From the sequence record MT446414.1: a stretch of DNA of 64,000 nt. One strand, written 5' to 3'. Made by a program: the position numbers and the translations under genes. Shown piece after piece: positions 2,777 through 44,826 of the stretch; the first letter of the stretch is position 1, and each line of letters begins with the position of its first letter. This stretch comes from Escherichia virus TH43. Under the pieces are notes generated by a model, which was given only the letters and a program-made list of their open reading frames with translations, was not told the origin of the DNA and searched no databases.

Positions 2777-5700
2777 ACTCTTTAGCTCGAACTCTAACCC
2801 GGAGTTTAGCTTGACGCTTACTTCTCTCCAACTTGTCAGACAGAGAACCACGTTTGACTTTCAACTCTCCCTCGTCATTATACTTCTCCAAGAACTGTAA
2901 ATACTCTTGTCGAGTAGTTGTCTTGTAAGAAGGAATCTTAACATCAGGATTCTCTTCAATCACACGTCTAATCTTCGCTACATCATCCCGCCCTAAAAGT
3001 TTCCCTTTAGCTTGTTCAGCAGTAGAACCAAAGATTTTCTCCAGTGCTCTAGATTTGTTACCACCCGCTGAAGCAGCACCAAGTTTCGCAATAGCAGAGT
3101 AATCGTCAGCACTAAACCAAGCCACTGGATTATCTCCATATTGTTTCTTGTTCTCCGCAGCAGTTTGTAAAGCACGCACAAAGCGACGGTTATTACCAGC
3201 TTTGTCAGCACCATGAACCCTATCTAGAACTTCTGCTACACTAGCCAGCTCCTGCAAGTCTTTCCCTTCGATAAAAGCTTTCTCTGCTTTGTTAGCAAAG
3301 TCATCTTCCTGCTTCTTAATACTTTCCAGTATATCAGAGGAGGCTTGAGACCTTTCATCTTCCGGCAACGCCGAACGAACTTTCTCCATTTCCAACTCTT
3401 CATCCTGAAGTTTCTTCAACTCAGAATCTACCTTCCTAGCATCTTCGATAGCTTTCGAAGTATCTGCATCCACCTCTACCTTCCCATCCATATCACCAGT
3501 TGCCTTAGCAATATCTTTCTCGATTGGTGTCATCTTCTCAAAATCCTTAGCAAACTTTGAAATATCCGATTCAATACGAGAACGAGCATTCTGGTGCTCA
3601 GTAGGAGTCATAGGTTTCTCCAGAAGAGAGTAACGGTTATCCATATAAGAACCTGCAAAGATTTCTGCATCTTCTTTAGGAATCCCTTTATCCTCCATAG
3701 AACGCATCAGGCGCTTATGAATGTCATCACGTTGGCGTTGTATTGCCATGCGATCGTTCTCTGCTTCCTGAGCTTCTTTGAGCTTCTTGTCACGTTGTAC
3801 ACGGGAATCAATGTCGTATTTACGGTTCATCTCTTCCGCCTGTTCGTACATCTTATTCCACTTAGCTTCTCGAGCATCTTCTTCCGCTTCAGTGAGACGA
3901 CGCTTACGGTCAATGTAATCACTTTCTGCGTTGTGGATACGTTCGATAATACTACGGAAACGCTCCGGTGGCACAGGAGAGTTCTTATCGTGGTGAGCTG
4001 CTAACTGTTTCAGTGTACGACCTTCCTGAGACTCACGTACCGACTCTGGTAAATCTTTCAACAGGTTCTCCATCTCCGATTTCTGAGCCGCTATAGCTTC
4101 GAGAGACTGTCTTTCTGTCTCTACTGCTGCCTTGGCATCACTACGAGCTTTAGCCCTGTTACGGAGCGTCTCAAGACGTTCTTGACGTGCTTGCAAATGT
4201 TTAGCTGCTGCTTCGTACTGAGAGTTCTTATTAGCTTTGTTGAACATGTTAACTTCACGGTTATATGTGTTAATGAAGCCATCCCATATATCCTTCATCT
4301 GTCCCACTTCCAAAGCATCTTCCCTTCCAGCCTTCTCTGAAGCTTTAAACTTCCCATCTACAAAGTCTTCCATCAACTTACGCATAGCATCTTTTTGAGC
4401 TGGACGTAATGGCTCTGCATCAAGAAGTAAATTGATTTCGCTGTGTAACTCTTTCTTCTGGTCAACCAGCTTAGGAGCATCAGCTTTATCAAGCTTCTTA
4501 TTCTCTGCAAGAGCTTCTTCATACATCCTATTAAATTCATCATCACGTTGTTTCTGATACAGACGTTCAGACCTACGCTTCAGTGAGTCTAGACTAGTCA
4601 CGTTCCCACCAATACCTTTCTCCTCAGCACGTAATGCCTTGGTAGCAATATCAGAAGGTAGACCACGTTCCTTAACCCAATCAGCAAACGAAGAACGAAC
4701 ACGTTGTGACTTAGCAGCAGCAATACCCTGTTGAGAAGCAAGTTGGTTACGAGCCATCTCAGCATGACGTTCAGCATTGTTGGCTTGGTCTTCCTGACGG
4801 ATACGACGCATCAACTCTTTCGGGTCACCTTTATAAGAAAGGAAGTTCTCAGCTGTGGCTTTAGCCTTAGCACCTGCCGTATACAGAGAACGAGCAAAGC
4901 GATCTGCACGATCTTTAGTAGCTTGACGGGCAGCACTTGACATAGCAGCCAGACGCTCTATTCCAGTAGCTGGTTTAACAGGCTCAGGCTCAACCTCAGG
5001 AGCTTTAGGAGCACGGGTAGGTAATGGCTCGGCTTGAACGATAGGCTCCTCAGGAACGCTCTCAGCAGCCTTGCTAGCCTCTTCTGCTTCTTGACGTTTA
5101 CGAGCTTCTGCAACAGCACGACGCTGAGCAACTAAATCCCTTGCGGTAGTAACTGGTTCTTGTGGAACTGGCTCTGGAGTTGGTTCTTCCTGAACCCTGT
5201 TAGCTTCGGCTTCTTGACGTCTAGCTTCAGCTTCCTTCAAAGCACGTCTCTGTGCGACCAAATCACGAGCAGTTAAAGGAGAGGTTTCTGGAGAGGAAAT
5301 TTCTTCCGTCACAGTAGTAGCAGAAGGCTCCCGAACCGGTTCGATTTCCGTGTCATTTTGAGTCTTAAATTTAATGTCATCAACTTCAGGTTCTTTCTCC
5401 ATCGCAGCACGGGCTTCATCAGCCTGAGCACGAGCACGAGTTACTTCCATATCACTACGAGCAAGAGAACGAATAGCTTCACTGTTAGCAGCCTGCTGGC
5501 TTTCACGTTGAGAGCGAGCACGGTCAGAACGGAAACGGTTAAGAACATGCTTAGCAGCACCAAGAGGATTCTTAATCAGAACTGGAGGAGCAGCTTCTTT
5601 AAAACCATCAGCAGTCAGAGAAGTCCAACCACGGTCTTGGTTACTCATTAACTTAGCTGTGTTATTCAGAGTGAAAGCATCTTGGATTGGGTTGAAACCT

Positions 5701-7193
5701 TCAGGCATTCCTTTAAGTTTCTTCAAACCACCAATAGCAGTTTTCATTTCTGGAGATACATTATCAGCCAGTTTCTGAAGCTCTGTAGCTTTCTCTATGA
5801 AGTTATTAAAGTCTTCACCATCACGAGCTTTGAATCGATTAGCTTCGTTATAGAAAGTTTTATAAGCATCAATGAAATCACGATCTGCTTGGGTACGATT
5901 CTTAATGTCCATAGCACTACCAGTAAAATCACCACTGGCACGAGCAGCTGTTAATTCACGATCAAGGTTATCCAGAACATCAGACAAAGATTTAGTGTTG
6001 TCTTTTGTATAATCAGCCATTGCATCTTTCATTGCCACAGCTTGTTTCTGGTTATGTTCGTTGTCTGCGTTAGCTTTACCTTGCTTCTTATTAGGAGCAG
6101 CAAGAGGATTTAAACCCGGAACATTAGAACGATCTTCCAGAATAGTAGCAGCCTTCTCGGCACGACTTTGATCAGTATTAAGGATACGCTGAGCAGCAGG
6201 AGAGTCCATAGCCACAGCATCAGTAACACGGAAACCGTTCTCATCGAGGAGATTAAGAGCAGAAGCTGTGTTAGCGTTATCAGCTTTAGAGTAAGCCTCT
6301 CTTAGTTCGTCTGCATTTTTAGCTGAGCGAATAGCTTCATCTTCAGCGGCAATGTCAGTCTTAACGTGTTCTGGAGTACGGTCAAAGACTTGAGGACTAG
6401 GACGACTTATCAATCCATGAACCCCACCAATAGCCCCACCGTAAGCAGCACCCATCGCACCTTCTTCTACAGCACCTTCAATGATATTAGCAAGAGTAGT
6501 GTCATCACCATATTTGTTCTGTGCTTCAGCAGCACCTACAAGAGCACCACCTTTAGCACCAGCCACTGCGTTAGATGCTACACTCTGACCAACACGACCT
6601 AGGGTAGTAGAAGCAGTGCCTGTCATCCCCGGAAGAATCTTCTGAGCTGCAAAGTTAGCACCACCAACTAAACCAGCATCAAGAACAGACTTCTCTTCAC
6701 CCTCTTCTGGAGTTTGGTCTGCATAAGCTCTACCTGTTTCACGAGCTGCAATAACAGCAGCAGCTACAGCTGGGTTAGCAACCGTAAGACCAATATCAGC
6801 GGCAACGCCAGCATACTGACCTACAGATTTACCTACACCATCTTCGATTTGAGAGAGACGTTCTTCTAGTAAGTTTTTAGAGTTGTCTTGAATACGCTTA
6901 CCGTAACTTGTCTGTGTACCAGCTAGATTTTCTCCAATCTCAACTAATCCACCAATACCTCTAGCAGCACTGGCTGCAATGTTTGCACCACCTGATTGAA
7001 TAGCGTTGGACACACCTTGGGCAAAATCACCAACCAACCCCGGTTGCTCTTCTTGTTTAGGAGCTGGAGCAGCCTCAGGAATCGTTCCACCCGCTGCTTT
7101 ATACTGTTCTCGCATCTGAGACTGTTGCTCAGGGGAGGCATTCAAATACGCAGGGCTTTTAGAAGCTTCTTCCCACGGTTTTAAGTTCGCCAT
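2775..7193 (-). CDS. large virion protein, 1472 aa (tape-measure-like or internal ejection protein)
   Basis: Very long Ala/Glu/Lys/Arg-rich coiled-coil-type protein with internal tandem repeat (ARDLVAQRRA... twice); last gene of the structural operon. Confidence 0.6.
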   Translation of the reverse strand: MANLKPWEEASKSPAYLNASPEQQSQMREQYKAAGGTIPEAAPAPKQEEQPGLVGDFAQGVSNAIQSGGANIAASAARGIGGLVEIGENLAGTQTSYGKRIQDNSKNLLEERLSQIEDGVGKSVGQYAGVAADIGLTVANPAVAAAVIAARETGRAYADQTPEEGEEKSVLDAGLVGGANFAAQKILPGMTGTASTTLGRVGQSVASNAVAGAKGGALVGAAEAQNKYGDDTTLANIIEGAVEEGAMGAAYGGAIGGVHGLISRPSPQVFDRTPEHVKTDIAAEDEAIRSAKNADELREAYSKADNANTASALNLLDENGFRVTDAVAMDSPAAQRILNTDQSRAEKAATILEDRSNVPGLNPLAAPNKKQGKANADNEHNQKQAVAMKDAMADYTKDNTKSLSDVLDNLDRELTAARASGDFTGSAMDIKNRTQADRDFIDAYKTFYNEANRFKARDGEDFNNFIEKATELQKLADNVSPEMKTAIGGLKKLKGMPEGFNPIQDAFTLNNTAKLMSNQDRGWTSLTADGFKEAAPPVLIKNPLGAAKHVLNRFRSDRARSQRESQQAANSEAIRSLARSDMEVTRARAQADEARAAMEKEPEVDDIKFKTQNDTEIEPVREPSATTVTEEISSPETSPLTARDLVAQRRALKEAEARRQEAEANRVQEEPTPEPVPQEPVTTARDLVAQRRAVAEARKRQEAEEASKAAESVPEEPIVQAEPLPTRAPKAPEVEPEPVKPATGIERLAAMSSAARQATKDRADRFARSLYTAGAKAKATAENFLSYKGDPKELMRRIRQEDQANNAERHAEMARNQLASQQGIAAAKSQRVRSSFADWVKERGLPSDIATKALRAEEKGIGGNVTSLDSLKRRSERLYQKQRDDEFNRMYEEALAENKKLDKADAPKLVDQKKELHSEINLLLDAEPLRPAQKDAMRKLMEDFVDGKFKASEKAGREDALEVGQMKDIWDGFINTYNREVNMFNKANKNSQYEAAAKHLQARQERLETLRNRAKARSDAKAAVETERQSLEAIAAQKSEMENLLKDLPESVRESQEGRTLKQLAAHHDKNSPVPPERFRSIIERIHNAESDYIDRKRRLTEAEEDAREAKWNKMYEQAEEMNRKYDIDSRVQRDKKLKEAQEAENDRMAIQRQRDDIHKRLMRSMEDKGIPKEDAEIFAGSYMDNRYSLLEKPMTPTEHQNARSRIESDISKFAKDFEKMTPIEKDIAKATGDMDGKVEVDADTSKAIEDARKVDSELKKLQDEELEMEKVRSALPEDERSQASSDILESIKKQEDDFANKAEKAFIEGKDLQELASVAEVLDRVHGADKAGNNRRFVRALQTAAENKKQYGDNPVAWFSADDYSAIAKLGAASAGGNKSRALEKIFGSTAEQAKGKLLGRDDVAKIRRVIEENPDVKIPSYKTTTRQEYLQFLEKYNDEGELKVKRGSLSDKLERSKRQAKLRVRVRAKE

Positions 7194-30195: not shown

Positions 30196-31737
30196 TTAGT
30201 AGCTTTGATTCCATCTGTTAATATTTTCTTGATAAAGCGACGAGCTACCATAGCTAGCGTCATGCTTAGACCGACCTCTGTGTGTAACAGAACAAGCTGA
30301 ATATCGCATTGCGTCCATAAGGTCATCATGTTCTTTAATAATCTTACCAACTTTTCGATGGTAACGTGCTTTCTCTTCAAAGAGCTTAGCACATGCGGTA
30401 GTATTAAAGACTTTGAATCGACCTGACATCATACGCTCACGAATATCAGTAATTCCTGGCTCCACAAAGAAGTTCTTCTTACCATCCATTCCGATCTTGT
30501 TATGGAAGGTATCATTTTGTACGTTTACTCCTGCATTTTTATAGAATTGTGCTACAGAAGCACCACTTCCCTTCTCAATGTTATCAGCATCGTGAGGAAG
30601 AATGACTGGAATCCACTGACCACGACCATTAATAGCTGGTGCATGATACACTGGAGTAAAGCCACTTTCTTTATAGCAGTCATAAATGTAGATTGTATCG
30701 GTGTTAGCATCATAAGCTGACCATACAGCTGCCGTCGGGTGATCAATACCAATATCAATGGCACAAACACGTTTCCACGTATCAGGAATTTCAAACGGGT
30801 CACACTTAATTGAATCATCAGATACATCATAAATCAAACCTGAACCCAACAGAGGCATACCTTTAGAGCGCATCTCTAGCTGCCATGCCGGAATACCTTC
30901 TGTCATATCCTTTATGTCTTGGTCAGAGATGTGACCACCTAGGTCCACATGAGCATCCCACCAAGAAGCATTTTGGAAATATAGAGAACCTGTGTTCTCG
31001 TCCCCTTCACCTTTCATAAACTTGTCCACCAGCTCTGTTAATCCGTTCTCTGGTGTAGCTGTAATCGTAACTAAACCTTTAGTAGTAAGTGTACGTGTTA
31101 CGCACTGAGAGAAGATTGCCATACTTTCATAAGGATCTTCTTCGTCCAGCCAAATGTAATCCACTGTAGCACCCATTAATGTGTGTTCACCCTGTTGGGT
31201 AGAACGAAACTCTAACGTACTCAGCCCATCAAATTCGCCTCTAGCATTTTGGTGCTTGATTTGTACGATCTGTAATTTGTTTCCATCTCGTTCTATCGTG
31301 TCAATGACGATAGCGTCACGAGGAATAACACCCGTCCCTAATAAGTTTGTATCCTTTCCGATAGGTGTTCCAAATAATTCCTTTTGCAATACCTTTCTTG
31401 TAGAGTCCCCTGTAATCCCTACTGCCCAAGCCAATATGGGTCGATTAAATCTATATCCTGTCCACCAAGTTGGGTAGCGACCTGTGACATGACAAGCAAA
31501 CTCGTATGCCTCGCTGTAAGATTTACCAACACGGTTAGCTGCACACAGGAATCTAAAGCGATGCTTCAGTCCCGCTGCATAAAAGTCTTTCTGAAACTGG
31601 TATGCTTTAAAAGAAAGAATCCTATTATACTTTCTCCATTGATCTCTATCCTTCAGCATTTCAAGCAGAGCCTTCTTCTCCTCTACCGATAGCTTGTCTC
31701 CAGTTAGTGCTTCATATATTTCTTTATCTAATGACAT
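30196..31737 (-). CDS. terminase large subunit
   Basis: N-terminal ATPase region (CAANRVGKS Walker A-like, WLDEED Walker B-like) and C-terminal nuclease-like region with conserved acidic residues. Confidence 0.75.
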   Translation of the reverse strand: MSLDKEIYEALTGDKLSVEEKKALLEMLKDRDQWRKYNRILSFKAYQFQKDFYAAGLKHRFRFLCAANRVGKSYSEAYEFACHVTGRYPTWWTGYRFNRPILAWAVGITGDSTRKVLQKELFGTPIGKDTNLLGTGVIPRDAIVIDTIERDGNKLQIVQIKHQNARGEFDGLSTLEFRSTQQGEHTLMGATVDYIWLDEEDPYESMAIFSQCVTRTLTTKGLVTITATPENGLTELVDKFMKGEGDENTGSLYFQNASWWDAHVDLGGHISDQDIKDMTEGIPAWQLEMRSKGMPLLGSGLIYDVSDDSIKCDPFEIPDTWKRVCAIDIGIDHPTAAVWSAYDANTDTIYIYDCYKESGFTPVYHAPAINGRGQWIPVILPHDADNIEKGSGASVAQFYKNAGVNVQNDTFHNKIGMDGKKNFFVEPGITDIRERMMSGRFKVFNTTACAKLFEEKARYHRKVGKIIKEHDDLMDAMRYSACSVTHRGRSKHDASYGSSSLYQENINRWNQSY

Positions 31738-33282: not shown

Positions 33283-34410
33283 CTAACCCATAAAGGCGTA
33301 TTCATCTAAAGGCCCACCCATGTATGAACCCATGTACGCTGATGTAAAGGGGACTCTATAAAGGCATACCCATAAAGGCCATGTCACATTAAGGCCACCT
33401 CATACCCATGAGCATGTCTCCACTCTACTTCATAATCCTCTTCGGTGAAGCTACCGTAGTCTTCTTCAGTCATGTTAAGGCCTATCCACCCATTTACTAT
33501 TCCTCACCTTACCACAGTCTGCACATCTCCATGTACTCTTGTAATAAGCGTGTAATCGTTCATCACCTCTTGATATCCGGATTGGATAGTACTCGTGATT
33601 ACATTTGAATTGCTTAACTAGTAACTTAATCTTCCACATAAAGTTGTTCCTCACTCTTAAATCCACAACTAACGTTGGGGCATATAGTTATATATAAGGG
33701 TTTTAAATTCTGATTTGACCGAGTGGACCTAGCCCCTCCGAGCGCGTTTCCTAAAAAGGGGGAGTCCTCATTTAAAAAAGGGTTATTACCAATGCAATTG
33801 CCTTTAGGAAATCAATCAGCCTTTAAGCTCTAAGCCTTGCCCTACCTGCTATCAGTGGCATGCCTACCCATAAATACCCTACCCATTAATATAAGCCATC
33901 TATTTAATACCCATGTATATCTAACCAGTGATTTCCTACCCGTATTTCTCTTACTCATATTGAGAAGGGATGAAAGGCTAGACTCTGATGCACTGTTAAG
34001 GGGTTATAATAAGAGGGCTAATAGTAAGGGCTATTATAGTAAGGTTAGTGATGGTAACACCATGCAATTATATCAATCCTCACACTACCCCACGTTTAAT
34101 AGTAATAACCTATGTTAATGTTTCATGAGTGGATTATTGATGTATGTATCATTAGACTGGAAGTAATAACTTTCTTTTATTATTCTCTTTTAATCTTTTC
34201 TTTTTCAGCGTGCTGTTGGTCTTTTTCTTTTGTTGTTTGAGTAAATTATTTGACTGGTAATTAACTCCCGCATGGTCTGGTCTGTCATCTGTAACTAACT
34301 TACATTATACCCTACCCGTTTCCCCTTCCTCGTTAGGCTTCTTACCCATTGGCTAACCTATGCGGCACGTTCTACCCATCTGTCGTTGCCGTTGGTCTGC
34401 TACCCGTTCT
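33283..34410. repeat. array of about 13 short ACCC[AG]T-core motifs in the divergent control region
   Basis: Repeated CTACCCAT / CTACCCGT / ACCCATAAAGG copies around 33285, 33316, 33329, 33368, 33404, 33867, 33880, 33910, 33938, 34312, 34343, 34374, 34401. Confidence 0.6.
33475..33666 (-). CDS. small Cys-rich (zinc-ribbon-like) protein
   Basis: CNHEY ... CADCGK spacing suggests a zinc ribbon. Confidence 0.3.
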   Translation of the reverse strand: MDLRVRNNFMWKIKLLVKQFKCNHEYYPIRISRGDERLHAYYKSTWRCADCGKVRNSKWVDRP

Positions 34411-34524
34411 ATAAGTGTTATAAAGTAACATTCTGTTAGTAAGCTGTACCTCTGAGTAAGAAAGTTTAGTAAATTAAATTCCTTTTAGATTCAATGAGTT
34501 ATGAAATAGTTTGAAAATAAGTGG

Positions 34525-34552
34525 TTGACATGTTTTTCCTTTAATATATAGT
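34525..34552 (+). promoter_or_regulatory. sigma70-like promoter upstream of the first early gene
   Basis: TTGACA, 16-nt spacer, TATAGT, about 40 nt upstream of ATG 34591. Confidence 0.5.
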
Positions 34553-34590
34553 TGCGACTGTAGTTCACATCAACCGAAAGGATTAATGAA

Positions 34591-35454
34591 ATGTCAAAGT
34601 TAGCAATTAAATACTTGAATCAGGCAAATGATGTACTTTCTCTGTTAGGTCTTTCCGTTGGTGTGCCTTCTCAATGGATGGATAACCAGCAAGCTCGTAC
34701 CAGCTTTAAAAACTCTGTCATTCTGGCTTGTCTTATCATAGATTCCGCTGCGAACGCCTTACAGTGTGAAGATGAGCAGTCAATGAAAGAGAATGGTTTT
34801 ACAGATATGCAAGATGCTATCAACTGTTACATTCAGGCTAATTTAGATAGTTGGACTCAGAATGATTGGCCTGAATCTTGCCGCGATGTTAACGCAGTAT
34901 TATCCCGCTTGTCTGCTATGGTTGAAGCTGTTCAGAACAAGAAGAAGAAAGATAGCAAGCCTTCTATTGCAAGTAAGATTATGAAGTCTGTCAACCTTGC
35001 AAGTTATGCACTGGTTGCAGCTATCGGTGTCAGTGCTATCGCTCCCAATGTGCAGGCAAAAGACTCTCTTTCTACTGGTCTGCAATCCTTTGTTAGCACG
35101 TTTAAGAATGCTCCTGATATGGCTTGCCGTGACGTTGGCAGTGATGGTAATGATTCATTCTGGAAGGTGCATTTTAACTCTGTAACCGTAAAAGATGTGC
35201 GTGTCACTCTTACCCCGTTAGGTGAGAAATCAGGCATTCAGTCGGTTATTAATTTAAAGCGTGCTGACAGTGATCATGATATGGTTACTTATTCTCTATA
35301 TCAGAAGATTGAGAAAGAGAAATTACAGTTTGTAACTAATCTCGTTAGTTATGGTGATGTGAGTGAAACTGTACTCGCTACCACTGCTTACAATGACGGT
35401 GTAGCAGTTTATACAACCTTTATTAACTTTGCTAATTGCGAGGCTATCCAGTGA
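34591..35454 (+). CDS. hypothetical early protein, 287 aa
   Basis: ORF with AGGA upstream; one hydrophobic segment. Confidence 0.5.
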   Translation: MSKLAIKYLNQANDVLSLLGLSVGVPSQWMDNQQARTSFKNSVILACLIIDSAANALQCEDEQSMKENGFTDMQDAINCYIQANLDSWTQNDWPESCRDVNAVLSRLSAMVEAVQNKKKKDSKPSIASKIMKSVNLASYALVAAIGVSAIAPNVQAKDSLSTGLQSFVSTFKNAPDMACRDVGSDGNDSFWKVHFNSVTVKDVRVTLTPLGEKSGIQSVINLKRADSDHDMVTYSLYQKIEKEKLQFVTNLVSYGDVSETVLATTAYNDGVAVYTTFINFANCEAIQ

Positions 35455-35699
35455 ACGAATCATTTGCAACCGTAATAAACTCTCATATGTGCATTCAGCA
35501 TGGTGATTTGGTTATCAGCGGTAAATATGGGCTTGTACTGATCCCTATCCGTGCGCTAGTGTCTTTATCTTCATTGCGTGCACGCATGACCATCGCTCAG
35601 TTGTCCGGCCTTGATCCGATGGATGCTAACGAATATCGTGATTTGCTGGTTAAATCTGGTCTATCGCTGGAAGAATTACTAACCATTGAGGATAATTAA
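35451..35699 (+). CDS. hypothetical protein
   Basis: GTG start overlapping the upstream stop (GTGA); track start 35436 is TTG. Confidence 0.4.
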   Translation: MNESFATVINSHMCIQHGDLVISGKYGLVLIPIRALVSLSSLRARMTIAQLSGLDPMDANEYRDLLVKSGLSLEELLTIEDN

Positions 35700-35701
35700 C
35701 G

Positions 35702-35974
35702 ATGGAAACTATTGCCATTATTGAAACACATAATTACGGCGTAGGCATTACACTGAATTATGATGCTATGGCTGACGTTGGTAATTTGTTATTGATCACC
35801 CCTAGCGATATGAAAATTATTGCCTTCACTGGTATTATGCTTATTGGTGCGGATTATCTTGAGCTAGCCCAATTCTTTGCCCGTAATGGCCTACTATTGG
35901 ACGTTGACGAGGTGCAAGCCATTTGTGAAACCTTTGATAACTATCTAGATAAGGTAGTAAGTGGTGAGCAATGA
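35702..35974 (+). CDS. hypothetical protein, 90 aa
   Basis: ATG two nt after the preceding stop. Confidence 0.45.
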   Translation: METIAIIETHNYGVGITLNYDAMADVGNLLLITPSDMKIIAFTGIMLIGADYLELAQFFARNGLLLDVDEVQAICETFDNYLDKVVSGEQ

Positions 35975-36073
35975 TTCATAAATATTTCTTGCATTGCCTG
36001 ATTGCTTTCTGTATCATGTTATTTACCTATGACATGATTTCTTATGTTGCACGTTCCTTGTAAGGGTTGGATT

Positions 36074-36400
36074 ATGAAAATTAAATTAGCTGTATGTGCT
36101 GCCTTGTTCGCTGTTTCTTCCGTGTCACATGCTGCCGTATTCAATGAGGCTAGCCTTGATGGTCTGCAATGCACCTATCTAATGGAAAATTACGACACTG
36201 GCAAAAAGTCTAGCAAGGTAGTATTGATTGACCTGAATGATTATGATCATCGTGTCGTTGATGGCAAGCATGCAATGCTAGTCAATGAAACTACAGGCAA
36301 GCAAATTACTATTGATCACATGATGCGGTCTAGCATGACGTTGTTCGATGAGTCGATGAACGAAATAGCATCAGGTAACGGCACTTGCACCAATCCGTAA
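36074..36400 (+). CDS. secreted protein (N-terminal signal peptide)
   Basis: MKIKLAVCAALFAVSSVSHA is a signal-peptide-like N-terminus; start moved to ATG 36074. Confidence 0.5.
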   Translation: MKIKLAVCAALFAVSSVSHAAVFNEASLDGLQCTYLMENYDTGKKSSKVVLIDLNDYDHRVVDGKHAMLVNETTGKQITIDHMMRSSMTLFDESMNEIASGNGTCTNP

Positions 36401-36419
36401 CCAACCCGTAAGACTCTCT

Positions 36420-36446
36420 AAGCGCCCTTTTGAGGCGCTTTTTTCA
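36420..36446 (+). terminator. intrinsic terminator
   Basis: AGCGCC cttttga GGCGCT stem-loop followed by TTTTTC. Confidence 0.6.
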
Positions 36447-36694
36447 TTTCTAAGGTGATTGCACATCTTGCCCCTGTTTATCTCGTTAGAACGCCTCCTA
36501 CATGCCTAGCTTTTGATTATAATGCTTGTTTTCTTCCTCCCTTGATGTTATTCGTGCGCGTGCTCATCTATACCTAAAAGAAAGTGAAATTATTTTAGAA
36601 AAAGGTATTGCTTTCTTTGCTTGATAGATTTATATTTGAATCTCAGGTTTAGTTATGCAGTCGGTAGCAAGCCTGATAGGCTAGACTTTTAGCC

Positions 36695-36708
36695 TTGCTC
36701 TTTAAAAA
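36695..36708 (+). promoter_or_regulatory. boxA-like element (copy 0)
   Basis: TTGCTCTTTAAAAA compared with rrn boxA GCTCTTTAACAA; preceded by hairpin GCCTgatAGGC. Confidence 0.45.
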
Positions 36709-36723
36709 CTCGATTAGTGTATC

Positions 36724-36750
36724 TTGATAAACTCCCAACCATGCCATAAT
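36724..36750 (+). promoter_or_regulatory. sigma70-like promoter (extended -10 type)
   Basis: TTGATA ... TGcCATAAT with short 15-nt spacer, upstream of ATG 36763. Confidence 0.35.
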
Positions 36751-36762
36751 GAGGATTTATCA

Positions 36763-36963
36763 ATGAACATCTATACCTTCTCAAGCAAAGACACACAAAT
36801 CACTTGCACTAGCATTAACGTTACTAACATGATTATGAGAATAGTCGGTAGTACATTACAGCAAGCGAAAGAAATGGTAGCCGATGCCGATAAAGGTAAA
36901 GCTATCGCGGTCTTATCGCTGGTAAGTACAGATAAAGATTTAACCTTTAAACGTATGAACTAG
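36763..36963 (+). CDS. hypothetical protein, 66 aa
   Basis: ATG with GAGGA upstream; track ORF 36724 trimmed. Confidence 0.35.
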   Translation: MNIYTFSSKDTQITCTSINVTNMIMRIVGSTLQQAKEMVADADKGKAIAVLSLVSTDKDLTFKRMN

Positions 36964-37030
36964 GGTAAGGTAAGGTTAGCGGCCTTAATGGTCGCTAGTT
37001 TATCAAGATGCATTAATCGAAAAATAGTTG

Positions 37031-37058
37031 TTGACACGTCGAATCGTTATGATAAGAT
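37031..37058 (+). promoter_or_regulatory. strong sigma70-like early promoter P1
   Basis: TTGACA (37031-37036), 16-nt spacer, TAAGAT (37053-37058); A-rich tract upstream. Confidence 0.6.
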
Positions 37059-37104
37059 GTGCACATGGTCAGCGATGACATAAAACATCCGGCACTAAGT
37101 GCCC

Positions 37105-37117
37105 CGCTCTTTAATAA
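37105..37117 (+). promoter_or_regulatory. boxA-like antitermination element (copy 1)
   Basis: CGCTCTTTAATAA, one mismatch to rrn boxA core; preceded by hairpin GGCACtaaGTGCC (37091-37103), i.e. rrn-like boxB-then-boxA order. Confidence 0.55.
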
Positions 37118-37192
37118 TTTATCGTCTTGCCCTTTCGCAAAGATTCACGCGAGATAAGGGAAGAGAACAAAAAGAAGACGATAAAAAAAGAG

Positions 37193-37220
37193 TTGACAAG
37201 GTGAAACGTTCTGATAGAAT
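37193..37220 (+). promoter_or_regulatory. strong sigma70-like early promoter P2
   Basis: TTGACA (37193-37198), 16-nt spacer, TAGAAT (37215-37220); A-rich tract upstream. Confidence 0.6.
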
Positions 37221-37243
37221 GTTCACTAAGCAGTAAGAAACAC

Positions 37244-37256
37244 CGCTCTTTAAAAA
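37244..37256 (+). promoter_or_regulatory. boxA-like antitermination element (copy 2)
   Basis: CGCTCTTTAAAAA about 25 nt downstream of the P2 -10. Confidence 0.5.
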
Positions 37257-37360
37257 TATGAATCAGAAAGTTAAGCGCAACCGCTTACAATCTTGTTAAT
37301 CCAATACGTGATTAACTGGTCATTCGAAAGAATAGACGAGAAAAAGATTTAAAAAAGTGG

Positions 37361-37389
37361 TTGACACGCTAAACAGGATGATTCATAAT
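37361..37389 (+). promoter_or_regulatory. strong sigma70-like early promoter P3
   Basis: TTGACA (37361-37366), 17-nt spacer, CATAAT (37384-37389); A-rich tract upstream. Confidence 0.6.
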
Positions 37390-37478
37390 GAGCACTCACT
37401 AAGCAAATCACCGCGAAGTGAACAGCGTAACAACGGCTAACAGTTGCATAGTGTGAGAAAGCACACTGATAGATTTAC

Positions 37479-37491
37479 CGCTCTTTAACAA
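37479..37491 (+). promoter_or_regulatory. boxA-like antitermination element (copy 3)
   Basis: CGCTCTTTAACAA followed by TTTA matches the rrn boxA consensus as recalled; preceded by hairpin GTGTGagaaagCACAC (37451-37466). Confidence 0.6.
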
Positions 37492-38305
37492 TTTAAACAT
37501 TCTCCTATATCGGTTGAATATGCTAGATGATAATAACCATCGGATAGCATACCAGATAAAACGGTGTAAGATTCTCTAAGTTATCAGAGTAAACAATCTC
37601 ACAATCCCTTACTGGAAACGTCACCACTGATAAGCAGATTCATCGAGTGCACGCAAAGACTTAAGCTAATCGCCCACGGTTAAGGGTAGCGGCGGTCATC
37701 GCTAACAAGGCGCTACGGTGAAAGAAGTTAATCAGGGTAGACAAGCCCGACTAATTAACGCTCAATTGAGAGCGGCGGGGAGTGGTTAAAAAGTGGCAAA
37801 TTGCTATTTAACAATAAGGTTTAGTGTGAACGTTTACGAAGTGAATGATTTGAGGCCACTATTGATGGCGTACATAATCAGTTTATGTAGTAAACCTGCT
37901 GAAAGATATAAAACGTCAATGTATCAGGCGGCTAATGACTCTTTCGCAATAACCTCCCGTAGTGGGCGATGGTTAGCGATTGAGAGTTGGTATAAAAGGA
38001 TAGGCGGGAGCGAAAGCAAAGTAAACGATATTACCGACGGTTACAATAAAGTAACTAATTAGAGTCGGGCACACTGCCTTATTGTGATGATTGATCATCG
38101 CTATCAGGTCGGCTTCGTTTATAGCGACTAATTAAAGATACCAGATGAAACATCACGGATAATGGGGCGGCTAGGTTAACTCCTGATAAGACCGCCCCAC
38201 TTACCTATAACTACTTAATAACGAGCGGTTATAGTTAAGTCATTGTGACTTGAATAGCTCATAGAGAGCGGCGCATAGAGCGTTTCAATTAAAAGGTAAA
38301 TTATC

Positions 38306-39208
38306 ATGGCTAAATCTTTCAATCTGGTTAACGAATCTGGCTTTAACGCACTGGCTAACAACATTCGTAGCAACAACGCAGCGATTAAGCAAGATGTTTC
38401 TAACTTCCTGTTAGGTCACTTACAGCACTTCCGTGCTAACGGTAAGAAGTTAGATGTATTGCAGGCGGCAGTAGACTTCCTGTTAACCGAGCGTTACCGT
38501 GATTTAGATGTGATTGCGGTTGCAATCTCTTTCCTCACTCCTATCAAGTACAACAGCGACGGGGCGAACGGTAAAAAGAAATGGATTAATCTGGAAGGTG
38601 AAGCGAAAGCGAAAGAAGACGCTAAGCCGGAACAAGTTAAGGCCAAAATGGAACAAAACCGTGCCCGCTGGTCTAACTCCTTTGAACGCTTTGCGAAAGG
38701 TGAAGACGTGCAGGTTGATAATCCAGCTTTCTATAAAGGTTGCAATGACAACGTGCCAGTTGCCAACCAAATCAACCAGAAAGTTGGCGAAAACTTCAGC
38801 CAGGATATTTACGCCTTAACTGATCGTTTGGCTGCAATCCGTATTGAAGCGGCCTTACTGGCTGATGAGCGCAACGGTGCATCTTCTGATAACACTATCG
38901 CATTGAGTGAAGAGGTAGGCAAAGTTAAGAAAACTTTTGATTCACTCCTTAAGAAAGTAACCGCATCAACTGTATCTATCAGCGATGACTATCTGATCAA
39001 TGCCTCAGCCAAAGAGCTTGAATCTCTGGATTCATACGCTGATGAAATGGAGAAAGCGATCAACGAAATGACTGAAAAATTGTCTAACCTTCGCGGTCGT
39101 ATCTCAAATGCTTCAACTGTCAAAGCGAACGAGAAGGCGGCGGCAGATGAGGAAGAAGTATTGCGCAAAGCTGCCGCAATCATGGCAGCACGCCAACAAG
39201 CTGCATAA
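38306..39208 (+). CDS. hypothetical early protein, 300 aa
   Basis: First substantial ORF downstream of the promoter/boxA block; ATG with AAAGG upstream; Ala/Lys/Glu-rich. Confidence 0.55.
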   Translation: MAKSFNLVNESGFNALANNIRSNNAAIKQDVSNFLLGHLQHFRANGKKLDVLQAAVDFLLTERYRDLDVIAVAISFLTPIKYNSDGANGKKKWINLEGEAKAKEDAKPEQVKAKMEQNRARWSNSFERFAKGEDVQVDNPAFYKGCNDNVPVANQINQKVGENFSQDIYALTDRLAAIRIEAALLADERNGASSDNTIALSEEVGKVKKTFDSLLKKVTASTVSISDDYLINASAKELESLDSYADEMEKAINEMTEKLSNLRGRISNASTVKANEKAAADEEEVLRKAAAIMAARQQAA

Positions 39209-39228
39209 CTTACAATAAAGAACATATA

Positions 39229-39262
39229 AGGCGCTATTCGAAAGGGTAGCGCCTTTTCTTTT
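39229..39262 (+). terminator. intrinsic terminator
   Basis: AGGCGCTA ... TAGCGCC stem with 10-nt loop followed by TTTTCTTTT. Confidence 0.6.
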
Positions 39263-39316
39263 ACTAGTGCATTGATTCAGTGTACTAATCAAAGAAGCTA
39301 AAAAGAGATAAACACC

Positions 39317-39541
39317 ATGCCAAAATTGAAAACAGAAGTTAAGATGTATCGTAATATCTTAAACAACATGACCTATCGTAAAACCGATAAGTATGGAATC
39401 GAGTGTAAATGCATCCTTACCGGTGAATGGTATCCGTCACCGATTCAAGAACAAGCATTGATTGAAAACTCTGTTACTTACACCATCACGCAGGAAACTA
39501 AGCTAGGCCGATTCCTTCGTAAGTTAGGGCTACGCAAATGA
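39317..39541 (+). CDS. hypothetical protein, 74 aa
   Basis: ATG with AAGAGA upstream. Confidence 0.4.
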   Translation: MPKLKTEVKMYRNILNNMTYRKTDKYGIECKCILTGEWYPSPIQEQALIENSVTYTITQETKLGRFLRKLGLRK

Positions 39542-39759
39542 TCTTAACTCAATCCCACCTTTGCCCTATCTGTAAGAAAGCGCGTGCTAATAACAACCAT
39601 CGCAAGTGTAGTAGAATCTTACAACGACGTCGTAATGATGCCGAGATGGATAAGCTGCACAAAAATCAGCATGAGCACGAAAGAAAACAAGCGGCGATTA
39701 GTGCATCTTCTGTAATGTATCGTCGTGTAAGATCACTCCAATATAGGGAGGTTATTTAA
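39538..39759 (+). CDS. hypothetical basic protein, 73 aa
   Basis: ATGA overlap with upstream gene; CPICKK ... HRKC Cys/His cluster. Confidence 0.4.
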   Translation: MILTQSHLCPICKKARANNNHRKCSRILQRRRNDAEMDKLHKNQHEHERKQAAISASSVMYRRVRSLQYREVI

Positions 39760-39968
39760 TGACCAGCTTAAGCACGTTAGAGAAGAAAGCTACTCGTTTG
39801 TTAGGGCGTCGTGTCCGCTATCACTACCTGAATAAAGGCAAGGCATTAACCGGACGTATTACCACGGTATCCAGTTGTCGCGGTAAACTGATCTCTGTAA
39901 GTGTTCTCTTTGATGGCGAACGGGTAGCAATTACGCGTAGCTGGAAGTCGTTTAGTTTGATTGATTAA
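39759..39968 (+). CDS. small protein with SH3/KOW-like barrel signature
   Basis: LGRRVRYHY ... GRITTV ... V.FDGERV pattern; shares the GRRV core with 40039 and 41664 ORFs. Confidence 0.4.
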   Translation: MTSLSTLEKKATRLLGRRVRYHYLNKGKALTGRITTVSSCRGKLISVSVLFDGERVAITRSWKSFSLID

Positions 39969-40038
39969 GTTATTTGGTTAAGCCTTGCTATGTGGTAAGG
40001 CTTGCACGATATAATTTATCAGCGAAAGGAATAAAGCA

Positions 40039-40482
40039 ATGGCTAAATCTAAAATCAGCATGAAAGGCGGGCGTGTGTTCTCGATGAGTGAACTGGAAAA
40101 AGATAAGCCAGTCGCCACTAACCACGTTAGCAAACGTAGCCTTAAACGTAGAGCTATCAAACAAGCCGCTCAAGAACATAAACCGTCTACCGTAGCAAAG
40201 GTGTTAGGGCGTCGTGTTCACCGTGCTGATGCGCTTCTTCTTGCTGATCATAAGCGTTCCTTGTTAACCAACGGTGCAGCGAAAACAGAAGAAGAGAAAC
40301 GTTTAGAAATCTTCTGTAATGGTCGCACTAAGGGTAAGCAAAAGAATAAAGGTAGCACTAAGCCACCGAAAGCTTTCCCTACTACCAGCCAATGTGCACC
40401 TGATGTTTTCTACGCTGACAGTCAGCATAAATGGGGAGTCGAAAAATACATCGACCCCATCAAGGAAGCGAGAGTGAAGTAA
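40039..40482 (+). CDS. basic, probably nucleic-acid-binding protein, 147 aa
   Basis: Lys/Arg-rich; AAAGGA upstream of ATG. Confidence 0.45.
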   Translation: MAKSKISMKGGRVFSMSELEKDKPVATNHVSKRSLKRRAIKQAAQEHKPSTVAKVLGRRVHRADALLLADHKRSLLTNGAAKTEEEKRLEIFCNGRTKGKQKNKGSTKPPKAFPTTSQCAPDVFYADSQHKWGVEKYIDPIKEARVK

Positions 40483-40514
40483 GCCTCTTCTCTGTACCAG
40501 TAGTCAACTACTAT

Positions 40515-40540
40515 GACGCTCTTCTTGAGCGTCTTTGTGT
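40515..40540 (+). terminator. intrinsic terminator 1 of a cluster
   Basis: GACGCTC ttctt GAGCGTC followed by TTTGTGT. Confidence 0.5.
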
Positions 40541-40542
40541 CT

Positions 40543-40564
40543 GCCGCCTTTGTGCGGCTTTTTG
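40543..40564 (+). terminator. intrinsic terminator 2 of a cluster
   Basis: GCCGC ctttgt GCGGC followed by TTTTTG. Confidence 0.5.
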
Positions 40565-40713
40565 CGTAGCTAGTGATGCCTAAAGGGAAAGCCCTTTGTG
40601 AATCATTGGCATGGTTCAATCCCTATTGGATGGTCATTTGACCGGGCCTTTAACGAGGCCGCTTTTTTAAGAGTCTTTACGAGGATTCTTAAATGAGTGA
40701 GGTCATGTTCACT

Positions 40714-40741
40714 CTTTCAGGTCGCCCCGTCTTCGGATGGG
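40714..40741 (+). terminator. intrinsic terminator 3 (strongest)
   Basis: GCCCC gtcttcggat GGGGC followed by TTTTTTAT. Confidence 0.65.
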
Positions 40742-40801
40742 GCTTTTTTATGCCCGTAAAACAGGAGGTAGTAAGTTCTGATAACGACAGCCCAGCTACT
40801 T

Positions 40802-41188
40802 TTGACATTGACTATTTATTATGAGGCAGGGAATCAGCCAACCGCTTGCAAAGCATTAGTAGCGGATACCGTAATAAACAGAATGTCACAACGAAAACTG
40901 ACTGCCGAGCAGGTTATAAACCAACGAAACCAGTTCGAGTGGATACCCGTCTTATTAAAGAAGGAGAAACCTTTCAAACGTTATGTAAAGCTAATTCGTG
41001 ATGATAACCCTCTGACGAAGAAGTCAATCAGGGAGAGCGAGCAGCTTGCAAGACGTGCACTGAAGAAAAGTTATGTGCCTTTGTATAGCGGTACATACTT
41101 TCAGAGTAAGAGCGAAGGGGTGCCAAAGTGGTATACCAATCCAATGTATTGTGGTGATTTAGTGTTCAATAATAGTGCCCGTGACTGA
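40802..41188 (+). CDS. putative SleB-like cell-wall hydrolase domain protein
   Basis: LTIYYEAGNQ ... LVADTVINR ... NQFEW resembles the Hydrolase_2 signature as recalled; strong AGGAGGT at 40762-40768 implies a non-AUG start upstream of the track TTG start. Confidence 0.4.
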   Translation: MTLTIYYEAGNQPTACKALVADTVINRMSQRKLTAEQVINQRNQFEWIPVLLKKEKPFKRYVKLIRDDNPLTKKSIRESEQLARRALKKSYVPLYSGTYFQSKSEGVPKWYTNPMYCGDLVFNNSARD

Positions 41189-41389
41189 TTCATAGGTGCC
41201 AAGATTGACAAACTAAATTCCCTTATAAATCACCTACTTATGATTTTCTCTGCAAAAAGTGGTAGTGATTCGGAACCAGAGGTAATGACTGTATATAGAC
41301 CTCTGAAAATTATTGATAGAAATTAAGTTTAGAAATAATAAATTCTAAATAATATTTCTTATAATATCTTACTTTAAGAGGATAAAGAT

Positions 41390-41695
41390 ATGACTTTAGA
41401 GGTTTATAAGCTCCTTCTCGTACTCACTGTAACGATTTCTACTCTAGGATTTATTGCTTTAAGTAATAAGTCAGCAAGCTGGAAGCGTCGTTATGAGTTC
41501 CTTCTTAAGCAAGAGGAAGTCTTTAATGCTGATATTCGTTCCAAGTTGGTCAAGATGCAGGAGCAAATTGAAGCACGTAATGATCGTTTGGCTTCTTTGG
41601 GTTGGGAGATTAAGCGTATTCAAGATCTCAATAAGCAACTCACTGAAGAAATTAAACGCCAGAATGAGGAAACAGAGGATGCGCTCAAGGGTTAA
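41390..41695 (+). CDS. membrane-anchored coiled-coil protein, 101 aa
   Basis: N-terminal transmembrane segment LLLVLTVTISTLGFIAL then charged coiled coil; AGAGGA upstream. Confidence 0.45.
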   Translation: MTLEVYKLLLVLTVTISTLGFIALSNKSASWKRRYEFLLKQEEVFNADIRSKLVKMQEQIEARNDRLASLGWEIKRIQDLNKQLTEEIKRQNEETEDALKG

Positions 41696-41855
41696 GTTCA
41701 CCACTGGTCACACTGTTCGCCTTGTTGGCGGTACTCAAACAGGTGTTATTCGTCGGAGAACAACGATTGATGGTGTTCTCTGTTATCTTGTTCAGTGGAA
41801 TGGTGAATCCTCTCCTTCCTTCGAACGTCGTACTGATTTGGTGTTAATCAAATGA
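41664..41855 (+). CDS. small SH3/KOW-like protein
   Basis: HTVRLVGGTQTGVIRRRT ... YLVQWNG pattern; start uncertain (ATG 41664 or 41679). Confidence 0.35.
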   Translation: MRKQRMRSRVKFTTGHTVRLVGGTQTGVIRRRTTIDGVLCYLVQWNGESSPSFERRTDLVLIK

Positions 41856-42082
41856 AAATTAATCTCCCATCTTTAGTTGTTACTAAAAAGCTCAGCGATC
41901 TACGTCCGGGTGATGTATTCCGTCTACCAACTAACTCTGAACACCTCTATCTAAAGACAGACACCTGCCTGAATGATATGCATCGTGTGGTTGGTCTTCG
42001 TCAGGGAACACTATTCCAGTTACAGGAACATCATGAAGTTATCCCTGTATTTGATGTTCAAGTGACTAATATTGGTGGTTAA
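41852..42082 (+). CDS. small protein, PGDVF-motif family member 1
   Basis: LSDLRPGDVFRL motif; ATGA overlap with upstream gene. Confidence 0.5.
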   Translation: MKINLPSLVVTKKLSDLRPGDVFRLPTNSEHLYLKTDTCLNDMHRVVGLRQGTLFQLQEHHEVIPVFDVQVTNIGG

Positions 42083-44337: not shown

Positions 44338-44760
44338 TTGAAGATAGAGTTAGAATACCCCTTCGTTAATGACTGGCGATTGGGCTACTTAAGAACAAGC
44401 AGAGACGGTAGGAAGCGTGTTGATTTGTATAATACCGACACGGAGAGGACAACCATTTCTTACGCAAGATATTTAATGTCTTGTCACATAGGCAGGTACC
44501 TAACTGAAGACGAGGAGGTTGATCATATTGACAGAAATAAAACTAATGATGACATATCTAATCTTCAGATACTTTCCATAGAAAATCACAGAAAGAAGTC
44601 AACATTAGAAGCAACTACTGGAAGAACAATGATTTCAGTTGTTTGCTCTTATTGTGGAAGATCTTTTGAAAAAGAAAAGCGAAATGTTAAATATGCAAAT
44701 TCTTTTTGTAACAGATCATGTGCAGGTAAGTATAACGGTTTCAAATCTATCGGGGCGTAG
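44338..44760 (+). CDS. HNH homing endonuclease
   Basis: EVDHIDRNKTNDDISNLQILSIENHRKK is a classic HNH core, plus C-terminal CxxC ... C...C; TTG start with GGAGGGG upstream. Confidence 0.65.
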   Translation: MKIELEYPFVNDWRLGYLRTSRDGRKRVDLYNTDTERTTISYARYLMSCHIGRYLTEDEEVDHIDRNKTNDDISNLQILSIENHRKKSTLEATTGRTMISVVCSYCGRSFEKEKRNVKYANSFCNRSCAGKYNGFKSIGA

Positions 44761-44826
44761 TCTAGTGGAACAGGCAGCGAGCTTCTAACTCGCCTTACGA
44801 GGGTTCGAATCCTTCCGTCCCGACCA
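44751..44826 (+). tRNA. tRNA-Arg (anticodon UCU)
   Basis: Manual cloverleaf: acceptor CGGGGCG/CGTCCCG, D-arm GTCT-AGTGGAAC-AGGC, anticodon arm GCGAG-CTTCTAA-CTCGC, T-arm GAGGG-TTCGAAT-CCTTC, discriminator A, encoded CCA; 76 nt. Confidence 0.8.

Follow-up and report, generated by a model that had tools for sequence, protein, structure and literature searches.

A conserved, structured noncoding RNA behind boxA cassettes at the start of the early region of Escherichia virus TH43

What is encoded in the roughly 800 nucleotides (nt) that separate the early promoters of Escherichia virus TH43 from its first large early gene? This interval, positions 37500 to 38305 of a 64,000-nt stretch of sequence record MT446414.1 (hereafter the window, to which all positions refer), had been described in a first-pass annotation as possibly a regulatory leader or a noncoding RNA (ncRNA) rather than protein-coding DNA. 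The description holds: the longest plus-strand open reading frame (ORF) is not kept among relatives, codon periodicity is missing, and the interval is under purifying selection with covariation on the plus strand. The window represents a phiEco32-like podophage of E. coli/Shigella in the subfamily Gordonclarkvirinae, with SU7 and Bas88 as its nearest relatives (∼94 to 95% identity). Its late genes form a block on the minus strand up to ∼33 kb, its early and middle genes run on the plus strand from ∼34.6 kb, and the interval lies close to where the early region begins. The molecular biology of this subfamily is little studied, according to the BASEL paper.

The coding capacity of the interval was explored using an alignment of the window with 22 relatives (73 to 100% pairwise identity). 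As had been noted, the stretch is poor in ORFs: from promoter P3 to the ATG at 38306, the plus strand holds a single ORF of at least 40 amino acids (aa), an 89-aa frame with a GTG start. The claim that this frame has no ribosome-binding site (RBS) is roughly right, but a GGAG occurs ∼10 nt upstream (37779 to 37782), within a conserved helix. Across 22 genomes the frame is intact only in the window and in its closest relative, Bas88; it is cut to 44 aa in two and absent in 18, and NCB, PAS59, and TH42 have no ORF of at least 40 aa in the region on either strand. Variability by codon phase was 0.134/0.149/0.133 over 37500 to 38305 and 0.153/0.158/0.176 over the 89-aa ORF, with no periodicity in either case, whereas the adjacent gene, used as a positive control, displayed strong periodicity (0.105/0.072/0.332). 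Insertions and deletions (indels) of 1 nt are frequent across the interval. A conserved ORF, an excess of third-position changes, and indels in threes, the usual signs of a protein-coding sequence, were thus not found in 37500 to 38305. A few ORFs of 12 to 23 codons have a common start and stop in most relatives (that at 38084 to 38129 in 21 of 22), which would be expected from the high identity alone and does not appear to be a mark of translation.

Conservation in related phages, suggested earlier as a check, proved to be complete. All 97 related records contain the interval at full length (826 to 831 nt) with 77 to 95% identity, and it is almost never annotated in them. The level of conservation matches that of codon positions 1 and 2, with values in 50-nt bins of 0.77 to 0.92 that equal or exceed those of the adjacent gene. 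The lack of codon periodicity, the indels, and the unkept ORF, taken together with this high conservation, therefore show that 37500 to 38305 is noncoding and under purifying selection.

The variation that does occur follows an RNA fold. The consensus obtained with RNAalifold from 22 sequences over 37390 to 38320 contains 230 pairs in 38 helices, and 74 of these pairs are compensatory, meaning that at least one sequence has both partners changed and the pairing kept. Standard pairs occupy 99.3% of the 5,052 cells, of which 338 are compensatory. None of 500 column shuffles reached the observed covariation values, and when the 3′ partners were slid by 1 to 3 columns, a control that preserves phylogeny, pairing was 35 to 47% and compensatory pairs numbered 5 to 12, versus 74. 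G-U/U-G cells are far more numerous than A-C/C-A cells (518, or 10.2%, versus 18, or 0.36%), and consensus folding yields −245 kcal/mol on the plus strand versus −160 on the minus strand. This indicates that selection acts on the plus-strand transcript and not on duplex DNA; the plus strand is also the direction of the early promoters. The interval thus combines compensatory pairs beyond those of the controls with strand-specific G-U pairs, as structured functional RNAs generally do. Moreover, the window sequence alone recovers the same architecture and has a minimum free energy (MFE) z-score of −6.07 relative to dinucleotide shuffles. Conservation is as high in unpaired columns as in paired ones (0.916 versus 0.911), which points to tertiary contacts or bound partners, and not to a requirement for just any stable structure. 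That 37500 to 38305 specifies a conserved, structured plus-strand RNA is, in our assessment, virtually certain.

The RNA body of ∼0.85 to 0.9 kb would form the untranslated 5′ part of the main immediate-early transcript and is organized as two domains followed by an array of eight hairpins (Table 1). An 11-bp long-range helix (37492 to 37504/37778 to 37790), with three compensatory pairs, closes domain I, which contains hairpins at 37519 to 37551, 37566 to 37602, and 37759 to 37774 and a 26-bp arm with apical elements (37620 to 37650/37710 to 37742). Domain II is closed by ∼24 bp in three stacked helices (37811 to 37820/38076 to 38085, 37824 to 37828/38070 to 38074, and 37831 to 37842/38016 to 38027) and carries sub-arms at 37846 to 37880, 37895 to 38008, and 38034 to 38068. 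In the first of these the sequence is hypervariable and the pairing is kept, with 8 of 12 pairs compensatory. Covarying stacks that do not fit into the nested fold were also sought, which revealed a perfect 9-bp pairing of the domain I apex with a domain II hairpin; it is 100% paired in the 22 sequences and has two compensatory positions (CG to UA in three sequences and GC to AU in one). It is a candidate tertiary or kissing interaction that may be intra- or intermolecular. The same search gave an alternative 8-bp helix, 38082 to 38089/38151 to 38158; two of its positions are compensatory, and it is in competition with hairpins formed locally. An internal duplication as the origin of the two domains was considered and rejected, the short repeats not being collinear.

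Two hairpins had been singled out in the first-pass annotation. The GGGGCGG...CCGCCCC hairpin is real, with arms at 38164 to 38170/38192 to 38198, one base from where they had been placed, and five of its seven pairs are compensatory. For TCGCTAT...ATAGCGA the arms (38098 to 38104/38121 to 38127, again slightly displaced from the positions first given) are indeed complementary, but there is no compensatory change, 5 of 22 sequences have a disrupted terminal pair, and the 3′ arm is shared with a competing covarying helix, 38107 to 38114/38123 to 38129; this hairpin is probably not a native pairing. The reported lack of U-tracts was correct, and no terminator-like site that could serve as an intrinsic terminator or attenuator lies on the plus strand between 37400 and 38305. 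Overall, the earlier view underestimated the locus, since the RNA has ∼38 helices and two domains across a phage subfamily and is not a loose two-hairpin leader. It also did not link the upstream boxA copies to the difficulty of transcribing an untranslated RNA of 0.9 kb.

These copies match the gammaproteobacterial boxA consensus GYTCTTTAANA (PMC5725501), for which the 64 kb contain five exact matches versus 0.56 expected. Four of them, all on the plus strand, are clustered at 36697, 37106, 37245, and 37480, one after each of the consensus-like sigma-70 promoters P1 to P3 and one further upstream. Copies 1 to 3 lie 25 to 91 nt downstream of the −10 hexamer, a layout kept in all relatives; each relative has three to six copies in the same place and orientation, always with one at the start of the RNA. 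The assignment of this last one as boxA copy 3 was confirmed, and its 16-nt GCTCTTTAACAATTTA is identical to the boxA region of the E. coli rrnH leader (TGCTCTTTAACAATTTATCAG). Both hexamers of P3 are kept in 23 of 23 aligned genomes. The P3 cassette is present in all genomes, and the P1 and P2 cassettes are variable, P1 being replaced in some relatives, always with the same boxA motif at the end. That the promoters are active is taken from the literature on related phages. In three of the four copies a hairpin directly precedes boxA, in the order boxB then boxA, and in the boxB-like hairpin before copy 3 one position shows UA, CG, AU, and GC. This is the order of rrn leaders, opposite to that of lambda nut (PMC8632103). 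We judge it likely, from these features of the sequence, that the boxA copies function in antitermination.

Several further observations concern these elements. The invariant, boxA-like GCTATTTAACAA at the domain junction fails the consensus at position 4 and was not counted as a boxA, because this position is altered in the C4T/T6C double mutant in which the function of the suhB boxA is lost (PMC5725501). The fifth consensus match, GTTCTTTAATA at 30330 to 30340 on the plus strand, falls inside the minus-strand late block and is probably due to chance. Insertions of 130 to 170 nt occur between promoter and boxA in the P1 or P2 cassette of some relatives, for example CGCGGGAAAGGTGGCACATAGTGCAGCG...GCCCCGTTA in TH42, KBNP1711, ECBP2, and MN05. 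These insertions have the look of small modules, structured or mobile, that were exchanged among cassettes. Two hairpin-boxA modules (37058 to 37127 and 37422 to 37498) gave weak, sub-threshold Rfam matches to the Yersinia small RNA Ysr197 (E values of 0.46 and 8.1), a family that may itself stem from an rrn leader.

The relation of the RNA to the gene that follows, a homologue of phi32_124 (gp124), bears on how the RNA may act. In the consensus fold the Shine-Dalgarno sequence AAGG (38293 to 38296) and the AUG are unpaired, and the competing covarying pairings near 38082 to 38158 do not include the RBS. In TH42 and PAS59, gp124 is 96 to 98% identical to that of the window and the RNA only 75 to 77%, and in EP335 the reverse is found. 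The alleles of the RNA and those of gp124 thus assort independently and recombine freely. At the junction itself (38290 to 38320; alignment columns ∼925 to 962) and in the first gp124 codons, two allele types occur that do not follow the RNA phylogeny, one of them common to the window, Bas88, and TH42, which suggests that a recombination breakpoint lies shortly before the RBS. Searches of Pfam and PHROGs returned only "unknown function" for gp124 and its neighbors. Given the terminator-like hairpin after this gene, transcription must pass through it to reach the later early genes.

Table 1 Features of the early-region start in the window
Feature	Positions	Strand	Remarks
Cassette 0	36678-36707	+	Hairpin 36678-36695, then boxA GCTCTTTAAAA 36697-36707
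Small ORF	36763-36963	+	Downstream of cassette 0
Promoter P1	37031-37058	+	TTGACA-16-TAAGAT, extended −10 TG; 10/12 matches; A/T-rich tract upstream
Hairpin GGCACTAAGTGCC, then boxA copy 1 GCTCTTTAATA	37091-37103, 37106-37116	+	Stem detected on opposite strand
Promoter P2	37193-37220	+	TTGACA-16-TAGAAT, extended −10; 11/12 matches
boxA copy 2 GCTCTTTAAAA	37245-37255	+	Kept as ACCGCTCTTTAAMAATATGAATCA in all relatives
Promoter P3	37361-37389	+	TTGACA-17-CATAAT, upstream A-tract; 11/12 matches; inferred start ∼37396
boxB-like hairpin AGUGUG-AGAAAG-CACACU	37450-37467	+	5′ of boxA copy 3; 6 pairs, 3 compensatory
boxA copy 3 GCTCTTTAACA	37480-37490	+	At start of RNA in every relative; invariant run 37471-37488
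RNA domain I	37492-37790	+	Helices mostly with compensatory pairs; single-sequence MFE agrees
Candidate inter-domain pairing, 5′ partner AUCGCCCAC	37669-37677	+	Apex of domain I
89-aa ORF, not a gene	37793-38062	+	Intact in 2/22 genomes; no codon periodicity; no Pfam match
Invariant boxA-like GCTATTTAACAA	37803-37814	+	Domain junction; partly paired in 37791-37809 and 37811-37820/38076-38085
RNA domain II	37811-38085	+	Consensus fold with covariation
Candidate inter-domain pairing, 3′ partner GUGGGCGAU	37962-37970	+	Hairpin of domain II
3′ array of eight hairpins	38086-38284	+	38086-38099, 38107-38129, 38144-38154, 38164-38198, 38205-38234, 38236-38252, 38257-38269, 38270-38284
First large early gene, phi32_124 homologue (gp124)	38306-39208	+	300 aa; phrog_13018, unknown function
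Intrinsic-terminator-like hairpin	39228-39255	+	12-bp stem and T-tract; after first early gene
tRNA-Arg(TCT)	44751-44826	+	Sole tRNA gene; 6.5 kb downstream of RNA

How would such an RNA be made, and what might it do? Long RNAs that are not translated are typical targets of Rho. In the mechanism that we propose, NusB/NusE would bind the boxA sites and, with NusA, NusG, and SuhB, would build an rrn-type antitermination complex on the host RNA polymerase. This complex would carry the polymerase through the 0.9 kb of untranslated RNA, and then through the early operon, without Rho-dependent termination. BoxA is known to shield long untranslated transcripts of clustered regularly interspaced short palindromic repeats (CRISPR) from Rho (PMC7665894). 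The complex would also hold the 5′ end of the RNA at the exit channel, as proposed for 16S rRNA, thereby aiding folding. In the rrn complex the 5′ nut-like element is fixed at the exit channel and the adjoining strand is "delivered" to its distant complement (PMC8632103), and the main benefit of Nus complexes on rRNA operons may be cotranscriptional folding (PMC5725501, PMC8632103). In the phage, the closing helix of domain I has its 5′ strand (37492 to 37504) starting two nucleotides after boxA copy 3, and this strand could be handed to its partner (37778 to 37790), ∼290 nt downstream. We consider this chain as a whole, a structured phage RNA made by way of an rrn-like, Nus-dependent antitermination cassette, to be somewhat favored by what we found.

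More speculatively, the folded RNA would itself act as a stable RNA, a ribonucleoprotein (RNP), or a multimer, made first and in bulk after infection. It would be an autonomous RNA of host takeover or counter-defense, more than a switch for the downstream gene. Such a role is suggested by the size and complexity of the RNA, its conserved single-stranded segments, the unsequestered RBS, and the free recombination between RNA and gene alleles; we put the chances of an autonomous role in trans at about even. The fullest form of the proposal is a miniature rRNA-like operon, in which cassettes that mimic rrn recruit host Nus/SuhB factors to make and fold an ornate RNA of ∼0.85 kb that acts autonomously, as an RNP or a kissing-loop multimer, in takeover or counter-defense. 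The RNA of such an operon could, for example, titrate an immune sensor, ribosomal proteins, or the Nus factors. We offer this form tentatively, at well below even chances.

Several points weigh against these proposals. The aligned sequences are closely related (75 to 98% identity), and some predicted helices are hence supported by invariant pairs only. The transcription of the RNA, its ends, its processing, and its stability are all predicted from sequence. Inspection of the sequence 3′ of boxA showed no GU-rich, boxC-like element; boxB and boxC of rrn are reported to be largely dispensable (PMC8632103). The RNA is mostly richer in G than in C and is highly structured, which by itself is unfavorable to Rho loading, and the step of protection from Rho may count less than the folding step. 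The RNA is not set apart from the gene at 38306 by any terminator or recognizable processing site and may therefore act only in cis. Clues to a function in trans were likewise missing: a blastn search of 5,426 complete E. coli genomes for a host origin or prophage copies gave no similarity, and the RNA is not significantly complementary to any other part of the window.

A serious rival is that the RNA is a purely cis-acting 5′ leader, which would protect the 5′ end of the mRNA from RNase E, set the translation rate of the first gene, or provide RNase III sites as in T7. The structure does extend to within ∼10 nt of the Shine-Dalgarno sequence that serves the gene at 38306, no terminator intervenes, and P1 to P3 are the only strong promoter-like sites upstream of the early operon. 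The 26-bp arm (37620 to 37650/37710 to 37742) and the ∼24 bp closing domain II are also stems long enough that they could be RNase III substrates. However, ∼38 helices, two domains, and an inter-domain pairing far exceed the size and complexity of known bacterial cis-regulatory leaders, and the consensus fold sequesters neither the Shine-Dalgarno sequence nor the start codon. The conservation of single-stranded stretches, equal to that of the helices, and the free recombination of RNA and gene alleles also argue against a purely cis-acting leader, which we regard as rather unlikely, if by no means negligible.

The other explanations fare worse. A primer or origin RNA for replication, forming a persistent hybrid with its template like ColE1 RNA II or the T7/T4 origin transcripts, would fit the strong promoters and the long, structured RNA downstream of them, which is untranslated and contains G-rich tracts (GGGTAGCGGCGG, GCGGCGGGGAG), but the cumulative GC-skew minimum (∼34.0 to 34.5 kb) lies away from the RNA. 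No AT-rich unwinding element or iteron-like repeat was found either, only short scattered repeats, and nothing else speaks for this explanation, which is very improbable. The conservation could instead reflect a DNA-level element unrelated to RNA, such as a packaging site, an array of host-factor sites, or a stop signal for injection, at a place ∼3.5 to 4 kb from the probable genome end where conservation is high. A double-stranded DNA site would not, however, select for 518 G-U versus 18 A-C cells or for a fold that is 85 kcal/mol worse on the opposite strand, and this leaves such an element hardly any probability. Least credible of all is a protein-coding function for the 89-aa ORF or the small internal ORFs. 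The frame and its upstream GGAG are there in the window and most relatives share the ORFs of 12 to 23 codons, but the frame is intact in 2 of 22 genomes and without a Pfam match, and periodicity is absent and indels shift the frame.

Known RNA families do not account for the RNA. With Rfam 15, the region 34000 to 42000 gave no match at an E value of at most 1 apart from one unrelated weak one, and 36950 to 38330 gave seven matches at an E value of at most 10, all far below gathering scores; the families not matched include GOLLD, ROOL, OLE, 6S, tmRNA, RNase P, group I/II introns, and riboswitches. An exact-pattern scan of IMG/VR found only five contigs, the same ones found via gp124, a single metagenome scan gave eight further copies (88 to 90% identical) and five chance matches, and tblastn with gp124 recovered the same 97 phages only. 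Within the sequences searched, the RNA and gp124 are confined to these 97 phages, five IMG/VR contigs, and eight metagenome contigs. Literature searches on the subfamily, the genus, and phiEco32 combined with noncoding RNA, RNA-seq, or antitermination gave nothing relevant, the primary phiEco32 papers being outside their coverage. The RNA is apparently undescribed, and both its fold and the combination with boxA cassettes appear to be new, each ingredient having precedents.

The distant C3-morphotype relative Salmonella phage 7-11 also has an ORF-free stretch of ∼1.05 kb before its first early gene, gp151 (4865 to 5917, minus strand), running to that gene from the genome end, the site of its validated early promoters. 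A covariance model of the arm 37617 to 37745 found no match in the 7-11 leader, gp151 has no detectable relation to gp124, and the four related phages available for this leader are too few for covariation analysis. The record of Cronobacter phage GAP52 has no annotated gene at positions 1 to 1711.

Comparison with systems already known brings out what is shared and what is particular. Like the E. coli rrn leader, the phage region combines tandem strong promoters of the sigma-70 type, preceded by A/T-rich tracts, with a hairpin followed by an exact-consensus boxA, and it would give a long untranslated, structured RNA in which the strand 3′ of boxA pairs far downstream, as the rrn leader does around 16S. 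It differs from rrn in having no boxC that was found and no rRNA similarity, in having three to six boxA cassettes in series versus one per leader, and in a transcript that runs on into protein-coding early genes; the role of Nus factors is here read from the sequence. As in lambda nutL/nutR with N and in HK022 put, an RNA signal of the early transcript just after the promoters would make the host polymerase resistant to termination, and boxA is common to lambda nut and the phage leader. The put RNAs of HK022 are two stem-loops of ∼70 nt that act without boxA. The order of hairpin then boxA is, however, the opposite of a lambda-type nut site, and no N-like protein is annotated or Pfam-recognizable in the neighboring ORFs, none of which, upstream or downstream, has a Pfam match, distant analogues being beyond the reach of this search. 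Both lambda nut and put also lack the 0.8-kb conserved fold that the phage leader adds.

In size class (∼0.6 to 0.9 kb), rich structure, and unknown function, the RNA resembles GOLLD, ROOL, and the ncRNA of Vibrio phage ICP1, all of them likewise carried by phages. The ICP1 ncRNA, of ∼800 nt, is the most abundant transcript of that phage and lies in an ORF-free gap of ∼1 kb (PMC7567579). The RNA described here gave no covariance-model match to GOLLD, ROOL, or any other Rfam family. Unlike GOLLD and ROOL, it is not adjacent to tRNA genes, the sole tRNA gene being 6.5 kb away, and unlike all three it forms the 5′ end of an early operon behind boxA cassettes, in podophages of E. coli/Shigella. 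The early region of T7 offers another parallel, with promoters A1 to A3, a leader of a few hundred nt, the RNase III site R0.3, and gene 0.3. In both phages three tandem strong host-type promoters near the genome end are followed by an untranslated leader and then by early genes. To our knowledge, however, the T7 leader is not a conserved multidomain fold, and RNase III sites in the phage leader studied here are only candidates. As at CRISPR arrays and in the suhB leader, where it serves a long untranslated RNA or gene regulation, boxA occurs here outside rRNA. Those are host loci with a single boxA, whereas the boxA copies here are phage encoded, multiple, and coupled to a large structured RNA. 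The nearest analogues would thus be GOLLD, ROOL, and the ICP1 ncRNA in kind and the rrn leader in mode of expression.

The surroundings of the locus have been annotated unevenly. In phiEco32 the corresponding 1.9 kb, which separate genes 125 and 124, are left as a gap, and the locus is without annotation in SU7, SU10, Paul, and most other records. The record of 101114UKE3 has nine tiny "hypothetical protein" coding sequences on both strands over the promoter block and the RNA (1130 to 2800), almost certainly false predictions. A 118-aa early ORF (36044 to 36400, plus strand), located upstream of the promoter block, matches phrog_13168, "terminase," and several records copy this label; it looks like a propagated misannotation, an early protein of ∼120 aa being unlikely to be a terminase. 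Between 33000 and 34600 the orientation of the genes flips and the cumulative GC skew has its minimum; this switch probably marks the physical genome ends (terminal repeats) of a permuted assembly.

Very large and intricately folded RNAs are rare in bacteria and phages, and the function of nearly all of them (GOLLD, ROOL, OLE, and the ICP1 RNA) is unknown, one reason being hosts that are hard to handle. The RNA described here is present in common lytic coliphages, including isolates of the BASEL collection able to plate on E. coli K-12 in which the O-antigen has been restored, and deletion, compensatory mutagenesis, pulldowns, and cryo-electron microscopy are therefore feasible. Some 1.3 to 1.9 kb of these genomes is at present unannotated or, as in 101114UKE3, misannotated with spurious small ORFs. 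The arrangement suggests that a lytic phage copied the transcription and antitermination signals of host rRNA without an N-like protein of its own. If so, this would widen the known uses of boxA and the Nus factors and would provide a natural test, beyond rRNA, of the model in which the antitermination complex serves as an RNA chaperone. Should the reading as a miniature rRNA-like operon prove true, it would be the first for a genetically tractable phage of E. coli.

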